From: Candidatus Micrarchaeota archaeon
GTDB lineage: Archaea; Micrarchaeota; Micrarchaeia; CABMEP01
Length of the DNA stretch: 64,000 bases
Direction of reading: 5' to 3'
Assembly (NCBI GenBank): GCA_964358895.1
Contig: CAYHPR010000002.1
Coordinates: 30,773 to 94,772 of the forward strand
Shown: positions 4,181 to 54,441 of the stretch, one piece after another
Position numbering within the stretch: the stretch's first letter is position 1
Layout of the letters: the number at the start of each line of letters is the position of its first letter
Notes under the pieces: generated by a model
What the model was told of the DNA's origin: nothing
The model's database searches: none
What the model saw: only the letters and a program-made list of their open reading frames with translations
Translations under genes and position numbers: made by a program

Positions 4181-5440
4181 ATGGACCTTAAAAAACTGTA
4201 TTATAAATCAAAAATTTCCGGCGTTGGCGGAAGGATAAAAGAGATACCCGAATCCTTCATTGTTCAAGAGATAGGGCCCACAGGAAATACGTATTATACT
4301 GATGCAGTATTAGAAAAGAGCAAAACAGTAGAAAATTTCCTGCACATCGTTTTACAAAAGAAAAATTGGTCAACTGAAGATGCAGTCGCACGTGTTGCAG
4401 AGGCGTTAGGTATAAATCATAAAAGATTCTCTTGGTCTGGAACAAAAGATAGACGTGCAATAACTACTCAACTTGTTTCAGTATTTGGATTGAATGAAAA
4501 ACAAATAGAAACCATGGATAAATTGGAACTAAAGGATATTGCTGTCCTAGGCTATTGGGGAGCAAAAGAAAAAGTTAAATTCGGACAGCACATTGGAAAC
4601 AGATTCAAAATAATCCTGACAGATTCTGATCCGGATTCAGATCAACTGATTAGGGAGATCTATACAGATTTGGGGGGCAAGTTTCCAAACTATTTTGGAC
4701 CGCAGAGATTTGGGAAAAAAAATAATAATCATATTATTGGAAAAAGAATTATTCAAGGTAACTTCTACGAAGCAGTAATGCTTTTCCTTACTGAAACCGA
4801 AGAAAATGAAAAAGAAGAAATTGCTAGTGTAAAAAAAGAACTAAAAGATACGAAAGACTTCAAAAAAGCTATTGAAAGCTTTCCGAGAAATATGCGCCAT
4901 GAAATCAGAATGTTGGAGCACCTGAATAAAAAACCTGGAGATTTTGTTGGAGCACTTCGTGCGATACATCGAAGTGTTTCACTTAGATTTATACATGCTT
5001 ACCAATCATACTTGTTTAACAGAGTGTTAAGTGATAATCTAGAAAAAATAGAAGAACGTAAGCAGAGAGGAGGAGAAAGGGTAGAAGATAGTAAGAGTCT
5101 GAATAGCATAGGAGATGATAAGAACTTTGATTCTTACTGTGGGACAAATTCTTATGGATTTCCTGATATCGAACAGGCGGGGACAGCTTGGCAGACTAGT
5201 AATATTATAGGTTACGATACAAAGATAACTGAAGAAGAAGCTGAATTATTGGAAGATGAAAATATTTCTAAGGATGATTTCAAAATAAGATCCGTACCTG
5301 AGTTATCATCCAAAGGATCTGTAAGAACGATGCTTGTTCCGATTAAAAATTTTACATATTCAAATGCAGCATTCACATTTGAATTACCTAAAGGCGCTTA
5401 TGCTACTTCAATGTTAAGAGAATTTATGGATAAAAAATAA
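4181..5440 (+). CDS. truD: tRNA pseudouridine synthase D (TruD/Pus7 family)
   Basis: GTKDRRAITTQ catalytic motif; FPNYFGPQRFG; 419 aa. Confidence 0.9.
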   Translation: MDLKKLYYKSKISGVGGRIKEIPESFIVQEIGPTGNTYYTDAVLEKSKTVENFLHIVLQKKNWSTEDAVARVAEALGINHKRFSWSGTKDRRAITTQLVSVFGLNEKQIETMDKLELKDIAVLGYWGAKEKVKFGQHIGNRFKIILTDSDPDSDQLIREIYTDLGGKFPNYFGPQRFGKKNNNHIIGKRIIQGNFYEAVMLFLTETEENEKEEIASVKKELKDTKDFKKAIESFPRNMRHEIRMLEHLNKKPGDFVGALRAIHRSVSLRFIHAYQSYLFNRVLSDNLEKIEERKQRGGERVEDSKSLNSIGDDKNFDSYCGTNSYGFPDIEQAGTAWQTSNIIGYDTKITEEEAELLEDENISKDDFKIRSVPELSSKGSVRTMLVPIKNFTYSNAAFTFELPKGAYATSMLREFMDKK

Positions 5441-32897: not shown

Positions 32898-33442
32898 TTT
32901 TAGACCTATGATATTTGTTTTTTAATCTATTAATTCTTTCTATTCTGATGTTTTACTTGAATTTTATACAGCTTACGCTAGCAGTCTGCGAAATTAATTA
33001 AGAAAAAAGAATAGGATGAGTGAAGAACACGGAAACTTGAGAAATAGGAGATTTAGTATTGGACTGGCACACAAATCGCTTGCGCTCTTTGCTTACACCA
33101 CCAACCTATCAAACCCGTCTGCTACGGGCTCCCACAGCTGACTCGTTTTGGGAGATCCTTCGACCTTAGATGCTTTCAGGTCTTATGATCTGGCGCGTGG
33201 CTGCCCGGCGATGCTTGTTACAACCGGTATACTAGAGGCGCCTACCCTCTGTTCCTCTCGTACTCAGAGGATATTACCCTCAGTCAACAACACTCCCAGT
33301 AGATACTACCGTACTGTCTCGCGACGTACTGAACCCAGCTCGTGTACCTCTTTAACGGATGTACAACCCGACCCTTGGAAGCTCCTGCACTTCCAGGATG
33401 AGATAAGCCGACAGCGATGTACCAAGCCGCGGGGTCGATATG

Positions 33443-33490
33443 TACGCGATAGTCTAATTAGTGTTTGACGAAAACTAGGCTATCGCAGGG
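33443..33490 (-). other. 23S insertion 1 (48 nt, ORF-less) inside the H89-equivalent GAGT|CATATCGAC block
   Basis: Conserved CGATATG..TACTCTCGCCCGCG is split by a hairpin, GCGATAG..CTATCGC. The boundary is ambiguous by the repeated TAC. Confidence 0.6.
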
Positions 33491-33513
33491 TACTCTCGCC
33501 CGCGACGAGCCTG

Positions 33514-33860
33514 TTTTGGGTCATTCCAGCAAAAATAAAATTACGAATAATTAATTTACGAATTTGATTTGTTATGAATAGAATTATTGACGTAGCTAAA
33601 CGTCAAAATTTACGAGGTTTATTCGTAAATTATCCATAAAGAATCCAGAGTTTCGACTAAAGCATTTTTGAAAAAAATTCGAGAATCAAGAAAAATTCAA
33701 GATTAAATCTAAGAGTAACTCTAAGAGTATTTCTAAGATAAAATCTACGATTATATCTAGATATCTAAAATTATTTTCATATTGTTTGCGCTTTAGGTGT
33801 GGTAGTAAGAGGAGATCAAACTAAACCACACTCTGGACTCCAAAATTTTCACTGAAACGA
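33514..33860 (-). other. 23S insertion 2 (347 nt, ORF-less, AT-rich) splitting GGGG(G/A)UAA|CAGGCU
   Basis: Exon halves ..gagcctg (33507-33513) and ttacccccgggg (33861-) rejoin to the universal CCGGGGATAACAGGCTGAT-like block. There is no ORF of 60 aa or more; internal TTACGAAT and TCTAAGAGTA repeats are present. Confidence 0.7.
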
Positions 33861-34029
33861 TTACCCCCGGGGTAACTTGTCTGACAGATTGAGCCCTTAT
33901 CAAAAGGATTTCAATGTTCATTAAGCCCGACTTTCGTCTCTGCGAGACATACTGTTAGTCTCACAGTCAGTCCTGCATTTCTCTTTAACCGTTATCATCC
34001 GACGTTCAGCGATGATGAGCGTCATTCGC

Positions 34030-34129
34030 TGCTTTGCCTCATCATAAACTTTTAGGAAATCTTTCGAAAATAAATTTCGAAAAATTGTTTTATAAAAAGT
34101 TTCTGAGGTTGTACATAATATCATTCGCA
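34030..34129 (-). other. 23S insertion 3 (about 100-150 nt, ORF-less, long AT hairpin); boundaries uncertain
   Basis: CCTCA..AAACTTTT....AAAAGTTT..TGAGG hairpin flanked by the direct repeat TCATTCGC. The region is longer than the corresponding E. coli or haloarchaeal segment as recalled from memory. Confidence 0.5.
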
Positions 34130-34536
34130 CATCACTGATCACTTTCGTTTCTGACCGGATTAAGCAGAACATTGGGCGCCTTTATTTCCTTATCGAAGGC
34201 GTACTGCCCCAGCCAAACTATCCATCTGCAGCTGTTCCTTTTCAGGTTAGAAACACAAAAATTGTAAAGTGGTGTTACATTGGTGCATCCACCTCGGCCG
34301 CGACCAAGGTTTCTACGCTCCCACTTACGCTATGTAACAATTCCTATATTTCAACAACAGACTATAGTAAAGCTCCACGGGGTCTTCGTTTCCCACTAGG
34401 AGTCCTCCGCATATTCACGGAGCAGTGAGTTCACCAGGTCCCTCTCTGGGACAGTGGGGGATTCGTTATGCCCTTCATGCAAGTCGCCAATTAAGCGACG
34501 AGGTATTACGCTACCTTAAGAGGGTCAGATTGGTAC

Positions 34537-34567
34537 AAAATTTCTATTAGAAATTTTCTAGAAATCT
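34537..34567 (-). other. 23S insertion 4 (about 31 nt) in the GGTAAACGGCGG|CCGTAAC-equivalent block
   Basis: aaaatttctattagaaattttctagaaatct interrupts otherwise conserved sequence immediately 5' (RNA sense) of CTTAAGGTAGCG. Confidence 0.5.
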
Positions 34568-35617
34568 CGTGTTACCCCCGCTCTTCGCCAGCCCTTTGTG
34601 CCCTTGAACGAGCGTATCGGGTACTGGTAGTGAGCAGGCATCGCCTTCCATACTAGACATTGCTATTTTGCGTAAAGCTGTGTTTTTGGTAAACAGTCGA
34701 TCCCCCCAATTCACTGCGACCTGCGCATGCAACTTGCGTCACAAACGCAGGCAATCCTTGTACCGAAGGTACGGATCTATTTGGCCGAATTCCCTAGAGA
34801 GAGTTCCCCTGCCACGCCTTAGAATTTTCATCTTGCAGCACCTGTACTGGATCTTGGTACGATCACAACGAATCGGATAGAGAAATTTTTCACGGACCCA
34901 AAGCGTACGCCAAACCGCCTAAGGGCGGCTATTCGCATATTATACTGCTTCTCCTCATAATGAGACTCCACAGTACTATGTTGCTTAAACAGAGTCTCCC
35001 CTGCTCAGCTTAGCTTCAGATGTCAATCTCTACCTTGTGTTGCCACGTCTATCGTTGTGGCTGCCGAATATTAACGGCATTCCCTTTCATGTCCTAGTAA
35101 TTGGCTGGACATTTAGGATCGGCTAACTCTTGGCTGTCGAACGTTGCCAAGAAAACCGAGTGCTTTCGGCGTTCAGGATTCTAACCTGAATTTGCTGCTA
35201 CTGACGCCAGGATATTTATTGCAAAACGGTCCATAGGAGCTCACGCCCCTACTTCTGCCCGTTCCGCACACCTTCCTACCAGATTACGTATTTTGTACGT
35301 ACTCTTGGGTATCAGAAATCAGTTTAGTCCCGTACATTTTCGGAATGTGTACTTCTTCTAGTAAACTAGATCGAGCGGTCCGCTATTACGCGTTGCTTAG
35401 ACGATGGCTGCTTCTGAGCCTACGTCCCGCTTGTCTAGAAATGAACACTCCTTGTGACTTCACACTTAACTGATATTTAGGGTCTTTAACCCAAGTTTCG
35501 GTCGTTCCCGTCACGGCACACTAGCTTACCCAGTGCAACCCGACTCTCAACTTCTACAATGAACAAAGATTCGGAGTTTGACAAGAAAGCAGACTCTTTC
35601 GAATCTATTCTCCCTAA

Positions 35618-36547
35618 TCAGTGCTCTACCCCTTGTTCCATCTCCATTGAGGTCATCCTGATGGATGCTTCGGAAGGAACCCGCTTTCGCGGACTTAAAA
35701 GGCTATTAAGTTCGTTTTTCTTCCGGATAACCGGAATATGAGTATAAAATCTTTTTACATTTTCAAGACCATTAATATACAAATCATAAGTTGATCTGTT
35801 TTTGTATGGTCCTGCTGAATTTATTGGGAAAGTTGAAAGTGCTTTCCTAATAAATTCTAAAGATTCTTTGTTTGTCTGCGTGATTTTTAGCTTATATCTC
35901 CCTGTTTTTTCAACTGTTTTAACAGAAGGGCAATATCCTTCTGCGTCGAAAAAACCAGCAATATATTTACTCCACAACTTCTTATTTTCAGCTATCATTT
36001 TTGGTGTCGACCACGTTGTTTGTCTTGTCGGCATTTCAAAAACTTTTTCGAAAAAGATAACTAAAGGTTTAGATGAAAACCTTAGTCTGTAACTTTCTCT
36101 ATCTTTTTCTATAACTCCTTTAATTCGGAAGTTCATCTGAAAAATCTTGCTTAAATATTTCAACCAAAATTCAGCATATTTTCCGCTTTGAGTTATTACG
36201 ATATCGTTTTTTCTCCCAGTTTTTCTGAGATTTCCGTCCCTCAAAGCACCTACAAGATAAGCTACATCTTCGTTTATTTTAGGAATCTTTATTCCTTTAT
36301 TGCTAAGAGACCTAATGTCTTTGGCAATTGTTAGGATTTCACTTTTTTCCTTTTCGTTCGAAATTTCCAAAAGCAAATCTAACGGAATTGCAACCCCTGA
36401 AAGATAACTATATTTTGTAGATCTTTTCAATTTGCCGAGTTTTTCGAAGTGAGTTTTAACAATCTCTTCACAACCTGTTATGAAAAGATTCTCACCTTTG
36501 AAATATTCAACAAGAAGCTGTTTATCACGCATACAGTTTTTACTCAA
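35618..36547 (-). CDS. LAGLIDADG homing endonuclease (double-motif), intron-encoded in 23S
   Basis: Motifs VAYLVGALRDGNL and YIAGFFDAEGYC. The last 22 codons of the ORF-track model read into the downstream rRNA exon. The likely ATG start is at 36532. Confidence 0.85.
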   Translation of the reverse strand: MSKNCMRDKQLLVEYFKGENLFITGCEEIVKTHFEKLGKLKRSTKYSYLSGVAIPLDLLLEISNEKEKSEILTIAKDIRSLSNKGIKIPKINEDVAYLVGALRDGNLRKTGRKNDIVITQSGKYAEFWLKYLSKIFQMNFRIKGVIEKDRESYRLRFSSKPLVIFFEKVFEMPTRQTTWSTPKMIAENKKLWSKYIAGFFDAEGYCPSVKTVEKTGRYKLKITQTNKESLEFIRKALSTFPINSAGPYKNRSTYDLYINGLENVKRFYTHIPVIRKKNELNSLLSPRKRVPSEASIRMTSMEMEQGVEH

Positions 36548-36561
36548 TTAGCCCTTTAAAT
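35684..36561 (-). other. 23S insertion 5 (878 nt) with LAGLIDADG ORF, splitting GCGAUAG|CGGGUUCC (E. coli GAGAUAGCUGGUUC block)
   Basis: Flanking sequences rejoin to the conserved ..CAATCGAACATCGCGATAG+CGGGTTCCTTCCGAAGC. Confidence 0.7.
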
Positions 36562-37554
36562 CTATCGCGATGTTCGATTGGACTTTCACCCCTATTCCAA
36601 GGTCACCCAAGTGGATATACCAACACTGGTTGCGGCCCTCCACCAATCGTTAGATCGGCTTCAGCCTGCCCCGGAATAGATCACAACCGCTTCGGGTCAT
36701 ACAATAGTGATCAAACGCATTTTCATACGTCCCGCCTCGTTCAGCACTGCGCGGAATTGCTTTCGCTACGTCTTTCGACTCACCACTACCGTATACTCCC
36801 TGGCTCTTGATTCGAGAAGTACGATGCAACACTGGTCCATTTTCCTGGTCCACTGCCTTGCGACAGTTTGCTTCGGAAAACTTCGACCCTTTCGTGCCAC
36901 ACCAACCTGTAACCATTCAGTTTCAGGCTCTTTTCAAAGGTCTTTCGACCTACTTTTCAACGTTCGCTCACGCTACTAATTCGCTATCGGTCTTGGATAC
37001 TTGTTTAGGATTAGAGGTTGATCCCCCCAACTTCGTGCTCCATTCTCGAGGAGCACTACTCACATCGTTACCCTCCTTTACGTTTTGCTTACGGGACTAT
37101 CACCCTTTGTCGTAAGACTTTCCAGTCTACTTCAGCTCCTGTAAAGGATAGTTGTAACGCCCACATCCACTACATATTACTATGCAGAGTTCGGTTTGTC
37201 CTGTCCGGCTTTCGGTCGTCTTACTCACCGGATCCCAATTGGTTTTTCTTCCTTCGGTTACTGAGATATTTCAATTCACCGAGTTTTTGTCCATTCCTGG
37301 ACGCACAGATATCTTCGGTTCAACGTTCGCATGCAACTCCCCGAAGCTTTTCGCAGCTTGCCACGTCTGCTTGAAATCCAAGCCTGGCCATCCCCTGAAT
37401 GGCGTATTAACTTCTCACTGTTCTCGTGTCCTTCACTCAAACCTATAAATCAGCGTCACAGCACATTCTCATGTGCTCAGCAATCCTTTGTCCAATCATT
37501 CGGACAAAATCATACTTCAACGAAACTTCGACGCTATTAACGTCAAAGTTTCTA

Positions 37555-37769
37555 TGGACTCGGCGTGATTCCCGCATAAGAACCTATGGTTCTTATTATC
37601 TCCTAGGCAATTGCCTAGATCGTTTCGGTTTCGAACACGCAGCCTCCTCCTGTTTTGGAAACTTTTTTTGTTAAGAAGTTTCATCATCAAACCAGCCGTT
37701 TTTTGATGAAACTTTTTCTTACAAAAAGTTTCTTGCAAAGGAGGCGCTCTACCATTGAGCTACGAGCCC
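37555..37769 (-). tRNA. tRNA-Ala (UGC) in the 16S-23S spacer, with two introns (82 nt at 37/38: 37652..37733; 61 nt in the T-loop: 37569..37629)
   Basis: Exons GGGCTCGTAGCTCAATGGTAGAGCGCCTCCTTTGCA / AGGAGGAGGCTGCGTGTTCGAA / TCACGCCGAGTCCA assemble to a 72-nt cloverleaf with the G3:U70 Ala identity pair and T-loop TTCGAAT. Confidence 0.8.
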
Positions 37770-38281
37770 AGTATTAACACTTCAAGGTCCTTCAGTGGAC
37801 ATATATGCTCTGAATTTTTTAGAAAAAAATCTAACCAAAAACAAGTTTTGATCAAACTTTCAAGAAAAAATTGTTCAACGTTTGAATTAAGTATCAAACA
37901 ATTGACGTTTTTAACGTCAATATTTAGCAATTTGCATTGCTAATCAAATTAATTACGCACACGACTCTCACAAATTTTTATTTTCATAAAATATTGGAGG
38001 TGATCTATCCGCAGGTTCCCCTACGGATACCTTGTTACGACTTAGCCCCCCTCATAAAAATTTGGTTCGAGGCTACCAATTTCTCAATAGCGCCTCACCA
38101 GACTCTCACTTGGGTGACTTGACGGGCGGTGTGTGCAAAGAGCAGGGACCGATTCACCGTACGATTGTGACATACGATTACTAGGGATTCCAGCTTCATG
38201 AGGGCGAGTTTCAGCCCTCAATCCGAACTTAGACTAGGTTTCGGGGATTAGCTCCACCTTTCGGTGTGGCAACCCATTGTC

Positions 38282-38911
38282 CTAGCCATTGTAGGCCACG
38301 TTAGGCTCTCGCGAGGTAAATTTAGGATGATAAGTATAAATTTTACGAAAATAAGCATCAGTATTATTGAAACCATTTATTTGGAGTCCATACATTTTGC
38401 CTGAATTCCAAGTAGAGAATTTCAATCCTAGATCTTTCAATAGGAAAGCCAGTTCATCTCTTATTGTTTTATTTACTACATGCATTGCAATTCTTGGATA
38501 GATGTATGTTCTTCTTTCTTTTTTTACTACTTTTCGTGTGATGCAACCTTCTGCATCCATCCACCCTCCAATATACGATGCCTTAGTTTTACTTCCTGAA
38601 TTCATGATCCATTCTGGCGTTTTCATTTGAAAAGTTTTCGTCCTTCCTTCAGGAACACCCAGTTTAATCAAGAAATTGTAGAGTTTTTTCGACCAAATTC
38701 TTATTCTATAACAAATATTACCTAAAGCAGTTTTCATCACATAAATTTTTGCTTTTATGTTCAACGTTTCTTCAAATAGTTTTGTTACAGTTTGTAAAAA
38801 TTCGAAAGAAGGATCTACAATATTGATTTCATAGTTACCTTTTCCATCTTTTGAAAGGCTTCCGTCGCCCCCAATTAGACCTACCAAATAAGCCAAAGAT
38901 TTTCTTTTCAT
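38282..38911 (-). CDS. LAGLIDADG homing endonuclease (double-motif), intron-encoded in 16S
   Basis: Motifs LAYLVGLIGGDGSL and ASYIGGWMDAEGCI. The ATG (MKRKSLAYL) is at 38911. The frame is open over the entire intron, and the last 6 codons lie in the exon. Confidence 0.85.
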   Translation of the reverse strand: MKRKSLAYLVGLIGGDGSLSKDGKGNYEINIVDPSFEFLQTVTKLFEETLNIKAKIYVMKTALGNICYRIRIWSKKLYNFLIKLGVPEGRTKTFQMKTPEWIMNSGSKTKASYIGGWMDAEGCITRKVVKKERRTYIYPRIAMHVVNKTIRDELAFLLKDLGLKFSTWNSGKMYGLQINGFNNTDAYFRKIYTYHPKFTSREPNVAYNG

Positions 38912-38992
38912 TATCTTTGTCAAATTTTTGTAGTTTTTAAAGGTTATGAGACACCTAACAACCGGTGATCCTAAGGATATTTTACCTCGCAA
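38300..38992 (-). other. 16S insertion 1 (693 nt) with LAGLIDADG ORF, splitting GGGCTACAC|GTGGCCTACAATGG
   Basis: Intron termini are complementary (CTCGCGAGGTAAA / TTTACCTCGCAAG). The exons rejoin to the archaeal GGGCTACACGYGGGCTACAATGG block. Confidence 0.75.
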
Positions 38993-39015
38993 GTGTAGCC
39001 CGGGAGATTAGGGGC

Positions 39016-39145
39016 TTTAGCCGTCGATAGCAGTGTAAATATAACAACTGCCTGCCGGCTCCCAAAAATCTTTGGCTAACATGTTCTGCGACATATTTGT
39101 GCAAAGTGCTGTGTTTAATGTGGTGTTGTGATACCACTATCGACG
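39016..39145 (-). other. 16S insertion 2 (130 nt, ORF-less) splitting ..GGTCAGTATA|GCCCCTAATC.. (E. coli CATCATG|GCCCTTA block)
   Basis: Terminal inverted repeat GTCGATAG..CTATCGAC. The flanks rejoin to GGGGCATACTGACCTACCGTCGCC-like conserved sequence (plus-strand view). Confidence 0.65.
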
Positions 39146-39259
39146 TATACTGACCTACCGTCGCCCTCTCCTTCCTCTGTTTTAACAACAGCGGTTCCTT
39201 TAGAGTGCCGCTTCCCCGGAGGAAAACGTTGCAACTAAAGATGAGGGTCTCGCTCGTTT

Positions 39260-39848
39260 CCAGACTCAATGGTAACGCCACAAAAGAAATAAGCATGATT
39301 AATGTTTAGTTTTATTTTCAGATTTTTCAGGTCTGTATTTTATTAATGAAAGAAAATTTTCAACGTCTCTGATCCAGAGATCTTTTCCCTTTCGTTTAGT
39401 ATAGAACCCAAGATGTTCAATCAGTAACTGATCTTGGAAGTTTGTGTTATGAATAATACTTCCATCTCCGTCTGATATGTACATCCCCCTTAGAAAAGAT
39501 GCGGATAAATTATTTTTTCTTCCAAATATCTCATTTTGATTTTTTAGAGTGTTTAAGAAGAAAGTCTTAATTTTGTGATGAGAGAACCAGATAGCTCTAT
39601 CTTCACTTACAATCTTTTCAGGAGGAACTAATCTAAGTTTGAGAACCATTTCGACAAATTTTTCTTGTTTATCAAAATTTCCAAATACTCCTACACTCTG
39701 ACGAGTACGTCTGAGTTTCCAGAATCCGATAAATTCTGCTAATTCGTTTGTCAATTTTAATTTCATATTCTCATCTTAGTTGTTTAGTTCTTTATTCTTT
39801 CTTTTTGTTTCTTTTGTGGACATTCACCAAAGAGTTTACTGGACTTAA
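39260..39848 (-). other. 16S insertion 3 (589 nt) with a short LAGLIDADG-like ORF, splitting GGTTAAGTCCAG|AAACGAGCGAGACCC
   Basis: The flanks rejoin to the universal GTTAAGTCC.GCAACGAGCGCAACCC block; the boundary is known to within a few nt. Confidence 0.7.
39299..39766 (-). CDS. LAGLIDADG-like protein, short (155 aa), first motif degenerate
   Basis: The second motif FLRGMYISDGDGSI is intact. The N-terminal LAEFIGFWKLRRT occupies the first-motif position but lacks the acidic residue. Confidence 0.65.
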   Translation of the reverse strand: MKLKLTNELAEFIGFWKLRRTRQSVGVFGNFDKQEKFVEMVLKLRLVPPEKIVSEDRAIWFSHHKIKTFFLNTLKNQNEIFGRKNNLSASFLRGMYISDGDGSIIHNTNFQDQLLIEHLGFYTKRKGKDLWIRDVENFLSLIKYRPEKSENKTKH

Positions 39849-40208
39849 CCAGACAGCTCACGCCACGAGCTGACGATGGCCATGCACCACCTCTCGGCTC
39901 GTTAGGTAAGATCTTTAGTCTGACCTTCATCCTGCCGTCGCTCCCGGTAATATTCCCGGCGTTGAATCCAATTAAACCGCAGCCTCCACCCCTTGTGGTG
40001 CTCTCCCGCCAATTCTTTTAAGTTTTAAGCTTGCGCTCGTACTCCCCAGGTGGCAGACTTAACGCTTACGCTACGGCACTGCCAATCCTCGAAGGAAAGG
40101 CAACACCTAGGTCTGCATCATTTACTGCTAGGGCTACATGGGTATCTAATCCATTTCGTTCTCCTAGCCTTCGCACCTCACCGTCAGACATGTTTTAGCC
40201 AGACGCCT

Positions 40209-40260
40209 AAACGCTTTCTTTCAGTTTCTTTGATGAAACTTTTCTTTTAGAAAGAAAGTT
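40209..40260 (-). other. 16S insertion 4 (52 nt, ORF-less) splitting GGCGA|AGGCGTC
   Basis: The flanks gacgcct / tcgccgc rejoin to the conserved GCCTTCGCC block. The insert is an AT hairpin containing AAAAGTTTCATCAAAGAAAC (RNA sense). Confidence 0.7.
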
Positions 40261-40467
40261 TCGCCGCTGTGGGTCCGTACAGGATTAACGGATTTTACTC
40301 CTACTCTATACGTACCTCTGGCCCCCCCCATTCTCAAGCTCGGTAGTACTCTCTGCACGCCTTTCGGTTAAGCCGAAAGATTTCACAGAGAACACGCCGA
40401 ACCGGCTACGTGCGCTTTAAACCCAATATACGTGGATACCACTCGGGCTGCCGGTATTACCGCGGCT

Positions 40468-40512
40468 TCCAGTTTCATTACGATGTAAAACGTGTAATTT
40501 CGTAAGGAAATG
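40468..40512 (-). other. 16S insertion 5 (45 nt, ORF-less) inside the universal GTGCCAGC|AGCCGCGGTAA (515-533) block
   Basis: attaccgcggct[45 nt]gctggcac, with an internal TTACGA..TCGTAA hairpin. Confidence 0.75.
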
Positions 40513-41224
40513 GCTGGCACCGGTCTTACCCAGCCCTTATTCTATCTGCTATTTACACAAATCAAAAGACCCTCTAAAAGAGGATCACTCGGAATTTCTT
40601 TGTCACGCTTTCGCGCATTGCAAAATTTTCGCGCCTGCTGCATCCCGTAGGACTAGGGCCCTTGTCTCAGTGCCCTTCTGGGGGCTCCAACTCCCATTGC
40701 CCCTACCGATAATCGGTTTGGTGAGCCGTTACCTCACCAACAGCCTAATCGGCCGCAGTCCAATCGTTAAGCCCACACCATACAATTCTGGTGCAGATTT
40801 CAGTCAGGAGGCGTTCCAGATCTCCAGACCTATAATGTATTATCCTCAATTTCTCGAGGTTATCCACTTCTAAACGTTATGTTGACCACGTGTTACTCAG
40901 CCGTGTGCCACGACTCCATAAGAAGTCGTCGACTTGCATGGCTTAGCCAAATTCCGATAGCAGTACCCTCCAGCAAGATCAACTGGAATTACGTCGATGT
41001 TTGTCGACGAGTATATTTATTTCTGTATGTTTTGACGAGCTCAAACGCTGTTGCTAACTTATCAGTTAGCGGTCGAGCACATATGTCCCTTGCTGAACCT
41101 TGAAGTGTATATCGAATCCAAACTTACGTCTTGGATTCTCATGGTAATAGTGTACGCTGCAGTGGAAACATGCAATTCATTGCACGAGAAAAAGACCCGT
41201 ACTCCTCTTGGCCGTTCTACAGCT

Positions 41225-54164: not shown

Positions 54165-54304
54165 GGAACTCACAATTTTAGTTTAATGTGTCGGTAGCTT
54201 ATCCTATTCTGTCTTAATCTATCCGACGATAATTTCATGTATGCTAACCTTTTAATTACTATCCTGGCTAGCTCGGAGATCCTAAGAACCGTAGGTTCTT
54301 AGAG

Positions 54305-54441
54305 CGAGCCCGAAGGGATTTTCGGAACAATCGGAAAGTTTTGTCGAACTTTTCCAAAAGTTCGTTCGAACCCTCAACCTCTCTGGACCGGTTATTGTGT
54401 TGGTCCGAAGCCAAGCGCTCTGTCCGTTGAGCTACGGGCCC
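54305..54441 (-). tRNA. tRNA-Arg (UCG, tentative) with a T-loop intron (46 nt, 54319..54364) and a short insert 3' of the anticodon loop (about 18 nt, 54382..54399)
   Basis: Exons GGGCCCGTAGCTCAACGGACAGAGCGCTTGGCTTCGGACCAA / GAGGTTGAGGGTTCGAA / TCCCTTCGGGCTCG give a stem CTTGG/CCAAG, loop CTTCGGA, and T-arm GAGGG-TTCGAAT-CCCTT. The exact boundaries of the first insert are uncertain. Confidence 0.65.

Follow-up and report, generated by a model that had tools for sequence, protein, structure and literature searches.

A two-intron tRNA-Ala(UGC) gene in the rRNA spacer of a groundwater Micrarchaeota archaeon, with a T-loop intron that is probably inherited

The rRNA operons of Euryarchaeota have the order 16S-tRNA-Ala-23S with the UGC isoacceptor in the spacer, and to our knowledge these spacer tRNAs are normally intron-less. 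In the Thermoproteales, tRNA genes with up to three introns are processed by a heterotetrameric (alpha-beta)2 EndA; the intron sites there include non-canonical ones such as the T-loop, the BHB motifs can be relaxed, and intron families are common to several sites. The non-canonical introns of Thermoproteales are viewed as recent transpositions. For ARMAN-2, the epsilon2 enzyme has been found to cut in vitro a 37/38 intron with a strict motif and also a 59/60 intron with a relaxed hBH motif (Fujishima et al. 2011, PMC3239211). The roles of its catalytic residues Tyr236, His251 and Lys282, and of Lys161 in the specificity loop, have been described (PMC6379350), and a crystal structure of 2025 has the specificity loop holding the bulge (PMC12397907).

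The gene presented here is encoded by a groundwater archaeon of the Micrarchaeota with a genome of 938 kb that is 94.8% complete and has a GC content of ~37%. The splicing endonuclease described below assigns the organism to this phylum, DPANN archaea of the ARMAN type. It lies in a stretch of 64,000 nucleotides, referred to as the window, which is the whole of the DNA to which unprefixed positions refer. Rfam places an archaeal 16S gene at 37995-40989 and a 23S gene at 33033-37422, both on the minus strand; both far exceed the length of their models, so both are intron-rich. The tRNA-Ala(UGC) gene is in the spacer between them on the same strand, at 37555..37769, and has 3 exons and 2 introns. 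In the direction of transcription these are exon 1 with tRNA nucleotides 1-37 (37769..37734, 36 nt), intron 1 at the canonical position 37/38 (37733..37652, 82 nt), exon 2 with nucleotides 38-59 (37651..37630, 22 nt), intron 2 in the T-loop at 59/60 (37629..37569, 61 nt), and exon 3 with nucleotides 60-73 (37568..37555, 14 nt), which does not encode CCA. The lengths add up as 36 + 82 + 22 + 61 + 14 = 215. A sequence-only reading of this DNA had given the same coordinates, lengths and 215-nt sum, here placed on the minus strand, and had reconstructed a 72-nt tRNA-Ala(UGC) with G3:U70, which is what ARAGORN calls when it is given the spliced sequence. The joined exons form a perfect cloverleaf of 72 nt, with 7 acceptor pairs including G3:U70, the T-loop UUCGAAU and discriminator A73. 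With intron 2 alone removed, ARAGORN recovers intron 1 as 82 nt in the canonical position, and the unspliced gene gets no call from either ARAGORN or the Rfam tRNA model. A permissive Rfam scan of the spacer gave only chance microRNA-like matches, on the intron 1 hairpin, and was set aside, as was the idea of a guide RNA in the introns, since by eye intron 1 shows UGAUGA but lacks a D box, and both boxes are missing from intron 2.

Intron 1 scores in the BHB scan as a strict hBHBh' motif, with H 4/4, h 5 and h' 5. Its central helix pairs UUUG (nucleotides 32-35) with CAAA close to the 3' end of the intron over 4 bp, the outer helix h is the anticodon stem, both bulges are 3 nt, and the inner helix h' begins GAAAC/GUUUC. 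It belongs to a dispersed family: a BLAST search of the spacer against the genome finds introns of 70-80 nt like it in tRNA-Ala(CGC), tRNA-Val(UAC), tRNA-Leu(CAG), tRNA-Arg(UCU) and others. The tRNA-Ala(CGC) gene (C5:8124-8276) has a homologous 37/38 intron of 81 nt and no T-loop intron; over C5:8139-8276, exon plus intron, BLAST aligns it to the spacer gene at 79% identity.

For intron 2, whether a BHB motif can form at the T-loop junction at all had been put forward as a check on the sequence-only reading. It can, in relaxed form only, so that the BHB-type sites proposed at 37/38 and 59/60 both have motifs, strict for intron 1 and relaxed for intron 2. BHB scoring in the 59/60 register gives H 4/4, h 5 and h' 1. 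The outer helix is the 5-bp T-stem, and the central helix pairs U54-U55-C56-G57 with CGGG near the intron end (UUCG/CGGG, 4 bp, two of them G.U). The 3' site has a 3-nt bulge, A-A|U60, and the 5' cut after A59 falls in the junction loop. The inner helix is one C-G pair closing a three-way junction with two hairpins. Those hairpins, already pointed out from the letters alone, are real: the first has 6 bp (CUAGGC-AAUU-GCCUAG, 37603..37618, minus strand) and the second 9 bp (37576-37596, minus strand). Because of an A run, four cut registers for intron 2 yield one identical product; registers 58/59, 57/58 and 56/57 were rejected for their poorer motifs, and only 59/60 is good. Intron 2 by itself has a folding z of -4.5. 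The hBH-type conformer has -24.5 kcal/mol and the MFE fold -27.6, a gap of 3.1 kcal/mol, and the MFE fold is a different one, with UUC/GAA plus CCG/CGG and bulges of 4 and 1 nt. This difference weighs against the intron 2 motif, as do the single C-G pair that makes up h' and the G.U character of two of the four central-helix pairs. The motif is of the type reported for the 59/60 intron of ARMAN-2 pre-tRNA-Cys.

Comparison with related genomes bears on whether the gene works. The spliced tRNA is 72/72 identical among this genome and relatives G003, G006 and G008, while intron 1 is 82 nt here versus 73, 46 and 42 nt in those three, and intron 2 is 61 nt versus 32, 31 and 31 nt. An identical 72-nt product in three other genomes despite differing introns excludes chance. 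In relative G001 both the acceptor stem and the anticodon stem of tRNA-Ala have changed in a compensatory manner, and G3:U70, the anticodon UGC and discriminator A73 are kept in all 11 orthologues examined. Within intron 2, the central-helix pair C56:G is invariant in 22/22 orthologues. Nucleotide 57 and the intron base opposite it covary, the pair being G:C in 9 of 9 cases, A:U in 8 of 13 and A:C never, as counted over these 22 orthologues, which come from related genomes and are not independent. Beyond the central helix the sequence of intron 2 is not conserved in this set. These patterns argue that the tRNA-Ala gene is functional and that the intron 2 motif is under selection. That the gene is instead dead, disrupted by the insertion of a mobile hairpin element, might be suggested by the copy of a dispersed repeat that intron 2 holds (below) and by the silence of standard tRNA finders. 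We regard it as scarcely credible, given the perfectly conserved exons, the compensatory changes across genomes, the covarying BHB helix, and the matching endonuclease and ligase encoded in the same genome. Moreover, this is the sole UGC isoacceptor found; no other copy of tRNA-Ala(UGC) turned up in the 94.8% complete assembly.

The next matter is the age of the T-loop intron. The orthologous tRNA-Ala gene was delineated in 10 relatives from at least 6 families, and all 10 have an insert at 59/60, of 20 to 145 nt. Three of them (G014, G019 and G024) keep the 59/60 intron where the 37/38 intron is absent, and G019 has a D-arm intron in place of the latter. A narrow pattern restricted to introns of 18-48 nt, whose counts are hence a lower bound, finds the T-loop-intron form in 28/151 genomes and 12/30 families of the class. 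A fully intron-less UGC form is found in 9/151 genomes, one of them being G025, where it is the spacer gene. On these distributions the T-loop intron of tRNA-Ala is old and widespread, although not universal, and its occurrence in at least 12 families argues that it was inherited and not recently gained. Locus L016 (G013:C3) has, as a separate observation, what seem to be two tandem tRNA-Ala(UGC) genes in its rRNA spacer: the 3' part of a gene with a T-loop intron is followed 47 nt on by another 5' exon, which has an intron of its own.

A recent gain at a preferred site, by site-specific intron gain or transposition, has to be weighed against this because the T-loop is a preferred intron site in this genome. 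Run with the intron option, ARAGORN finds only 26 tRNA genes, and further genes were added by a BHB-guided scan and by a T-arm-anchored search in which the stems had to be GC-rich and a D-arm present. T-loop introns, at 58/59 or 59/60, occur in at least 12 tRNA genes. Position 59/60 is interrupted in Ala UGC, Arg UCG, Arg UCU, Arg GCG, Pro GGG, Gln UUG, Gln CUG and Ser UGA, and Arg CCU and Pro CGG have 58/59 introns with a strict motif in shifted register. Besides the two in the window there are ten more such genes, which cluster among the isoacceptors for Arg, Pro, Gln and Ser; they are at C1:27500-27620, C1:115951-116123, C4:8561-8753, C5:58294-58412, C6:37212-37329, C9:27326-27445, C10:4168-4388, C10:4567-4754, C13:16101-16260 and C22:2669-2788. 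Both C10 genes have T-loop inserts and no unambiguously assigned isoacceptor, and to judge by their T-loop sequence they may be of the 58/59 type. ARAGORN also calls a tRNA-Glu(CUC) at C12:13935-15131 that would have an intron of 1102 nt in the canonical position; this could be real or a false call.

The second gene in the window is tRNA-Arg(UCG), at 54305..54441 on the minus strand, with two introns. Its interruption at 59/60, which the sequence-only reading had likened to that of tRNA-Ala, holds up as a 46-nt insert (54319..54364, minus strand) with a perfect, strict hBHBh' motif, H being UUCG/CGAA and h' GAAC/GUUC. An 18-nt intron that the earlier reading did not mention lies at ~41/42 on the 3' side of the anticodon stem (54383..54400, minus strand; H 4, h 6, h' 1), and its removal restores CUUGG/CCAAG. 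Several T-loop introns, in Arg, Pro and Gln genes, share a hairpin module, GAAACUUUU..AAAAGUUUC-AUCAAAAC, with 37/38 introns including intron 1, and this common AUCAAAAC module would fit the copying of introns between sites. The hot spot and the shared module both speak for recent gain. The Ala T-loop intron, however, does not have that module, and its presence in all 10 relatives with a delineated spacer gene and in 12 of 30 families even by the narrow pattern runs against a recent origin, which we consider very unlikely for this intron. The either/or originally proposed, site-specific intron gain or a tolerant endonuclease (heterotetrameric or epsilon2), is accordingly split: gain as a recent event is not supported for tRNA-Ala, and the tolerant endonuclease stands.

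That endonuclease was to be sought in the rest of the genome, and two EndA genes are found there, both on contig C2 just beyond the window. One, at C2:18579-19766, is of the epsilon2 type, a single chain of 395 aa with three units and with two N-terminal and two C-terminal Pfam domain matches. Its residues 19-395 align to 9-387 of PDB ID: 4FZ2, the crystallised ARMAN-2 enzyme, at E = 2.7e-131 and ~60% identity, and this alignment shows all of the catalytic residues Tyr236, His251 and Lys282 conserved, as well as Lys161 in the specificity loop (ARMAN-2 numbering). The epsilon2 gene is present in 31 of the 31 relatives sampled. No EndA compared among the relatives is identical to 4FZ2, the nearest being that of G014 at 495 bits. 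An RtcB ligase is also encoded in the genome (2.4e-169).

The other EndA is a single-unit protein of 173 aa, encoded at C2:98815-99336 on the minus strand, just past the end of the window, with its Tyr/His/Lys triad intact. The PDB entry that it matches best is 1A79, the alpha4 enzyme of M. jannaschii (1.6e-22). This alpha-type gene accompanies the epsilon2 gene in 9/9 genomes of the family, a few other genomes also have both, and a term search of the ARMAN-2 papers found no mention of such a paralogue.

The interior of intron 2 is of interest for what it contains. The 9-bp hairpin is part of a module, GGAGAU-NN-hairpin (UAAGAACC..GGUUCUUA), at 37576..37603 on the minus strand. The genome has ~10 copies of this SD-like module, often preceded by a CUAG-closed hairpin, and most are 0-14 nt upstream of start codons, the one in the tRNA-Ala T-loop intron being placed otherwise. 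A second copy in the window (54275..54302, plus strand) is antisense to tRNA-Arg(UCG) and 2 nt from its 3' end, a third is at 5111-5135 (plus strand), and others are at C3:64208, C3:68069, C3:90183, C5:16740, C6:19514, C8:12043 and C9:23195. Judged by eye from their N-termini, the proteins encoded downstream look like SBDS, prefoldin beta, a KaiC-like ATPase and others. The G.U pairs in two of the copies favour a hairpin at the RNA level in the orientation with GGAGAU first. As for other genomes, the Ala intron of G001 retains the orthologous hairpin, in which an A-U pair has become G-C by compensatory change, and G001 has no further module copy in its genome; G002 has one copy in a non-tRNA context, and the module is missing from most orthologous Ala introns.

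The 9-bp hairpin directly abuts the 3' strand of the central helix, adjoining the C-G pair, where h' would be. This position, in G000 and with its compensatory change in G001, together with the retention of the 59/60 intron in the three relatives whose 37/38 intron is absent, would suit a T-loop intron that selection keeps as a checkpoint, coupling the maturation of tRNA-Ala to rRNA processing that depends on EndA, with the hairpin as a surrogate h' or a protein-binding platform. The idea is weakened by relative G016, whose intron-bearing tRNA-Ala is outside the spacer, 18 kb off the 16S 3' end and so unlinked from rRNA, and by the wholly intron-less spacer gene of G025; the rarity of the module among orthologous introns also counts against it, and we think it unlikely. 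Another speculation, about as improbable, is that the 59/60 intron is ancient and has been retained across much of Micrarchaeia for its usefulness, for example by delaying the folding of the T-arm until EndA acts, with the module as a portable helix supplying the missing part of the endonuclease substrate. If that were true, the GGAGAU-hairpin module would be a mobile "intron-building" element.

Taking these lines together, we hold it very likely that this is a functional tRNA-Ala(UGC) gene, co-transcribed with the rRNAs and matured by the epsilon2 EndA and RtcB through one strict and one relaxed BHB motif, with a T-loop intron that was inherited. The tRNA would be released from the common transcript by the archaeal protein-only splicing pathway. 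The epsilon2 EndA would cut intron 1 at the strict BHB built on the anticodon stem, and intron 2 at the relaxed motif based on the T-stem, in which nucleotides 54-57 pair with the final bases of the intron. For intron 2 the 3-nt bulge (A A | U60) would contain the 3' site, and the 5' site is predicted after A59 in the junction loop. RtcB would then join the three exons. From the gene structure, the potential to form both motifs, the covariation and the presence of the enzymes, all observed here, we infer the cleavage itself, the order of both cuts and the conformer that serves as substrate. The T-loop intron would have been passed on vertically within the class while its interior turned over, here coming to host a copy of the module.

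The mechanism is not new and the novelty is low, since the cutting of ARMAN-2 59/60 introns by the epsilon2 EndA has already been published (PMC3239211). Genes with two introns, one of them in the T-loop, are a kind known from ARMAN-2, and the present gene is a clean, ordinary example of it. It resembles the ARMAN-2 case in phylum, in the type of endonuclease at the identity given above, in the 59/60 site, in the relaxed hBH-type motif on the T-stem and in having multiple introns per gene. It differs in that another tRNA is concerned, the tRNA-Ala of the rRNA spacer, and in the longer intron of 61 nt with its three-way junction and dispersed hairpin module; this genome also appears the more disrupted, with introns in roughly four-fifths of the tRNA genes found here versus 56% reported for ARMAN-2. 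The ARMAN-2 picture is in this way extended to another genus, and essential tRNA genes of Micrarchaeota are seen to be missed by standard tRNA finders. With the 16S-tRNA-Ala-23S operons of Euryarchaeota the locus shares its gene order and the UGC isoacceptor of the spacer. What is new here is that the T-loop intron is old and covaries in structure, along with the genome count of T-loop introns and the resident hairpin module. The Thermoproteales likewise have several introns per gene, T-loop sites, relaxed BHB motifs and introns of one family at different sites, but they are an unrelated lineage with another enzyme architecture, and here the tRNA-Ala T-loop intron is common to many families. 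The modestly new point is that a non-canonical T-loop intron can be old and vertically inherited, with its BHB helix kept by covariation, and need not always be a recent transposition.
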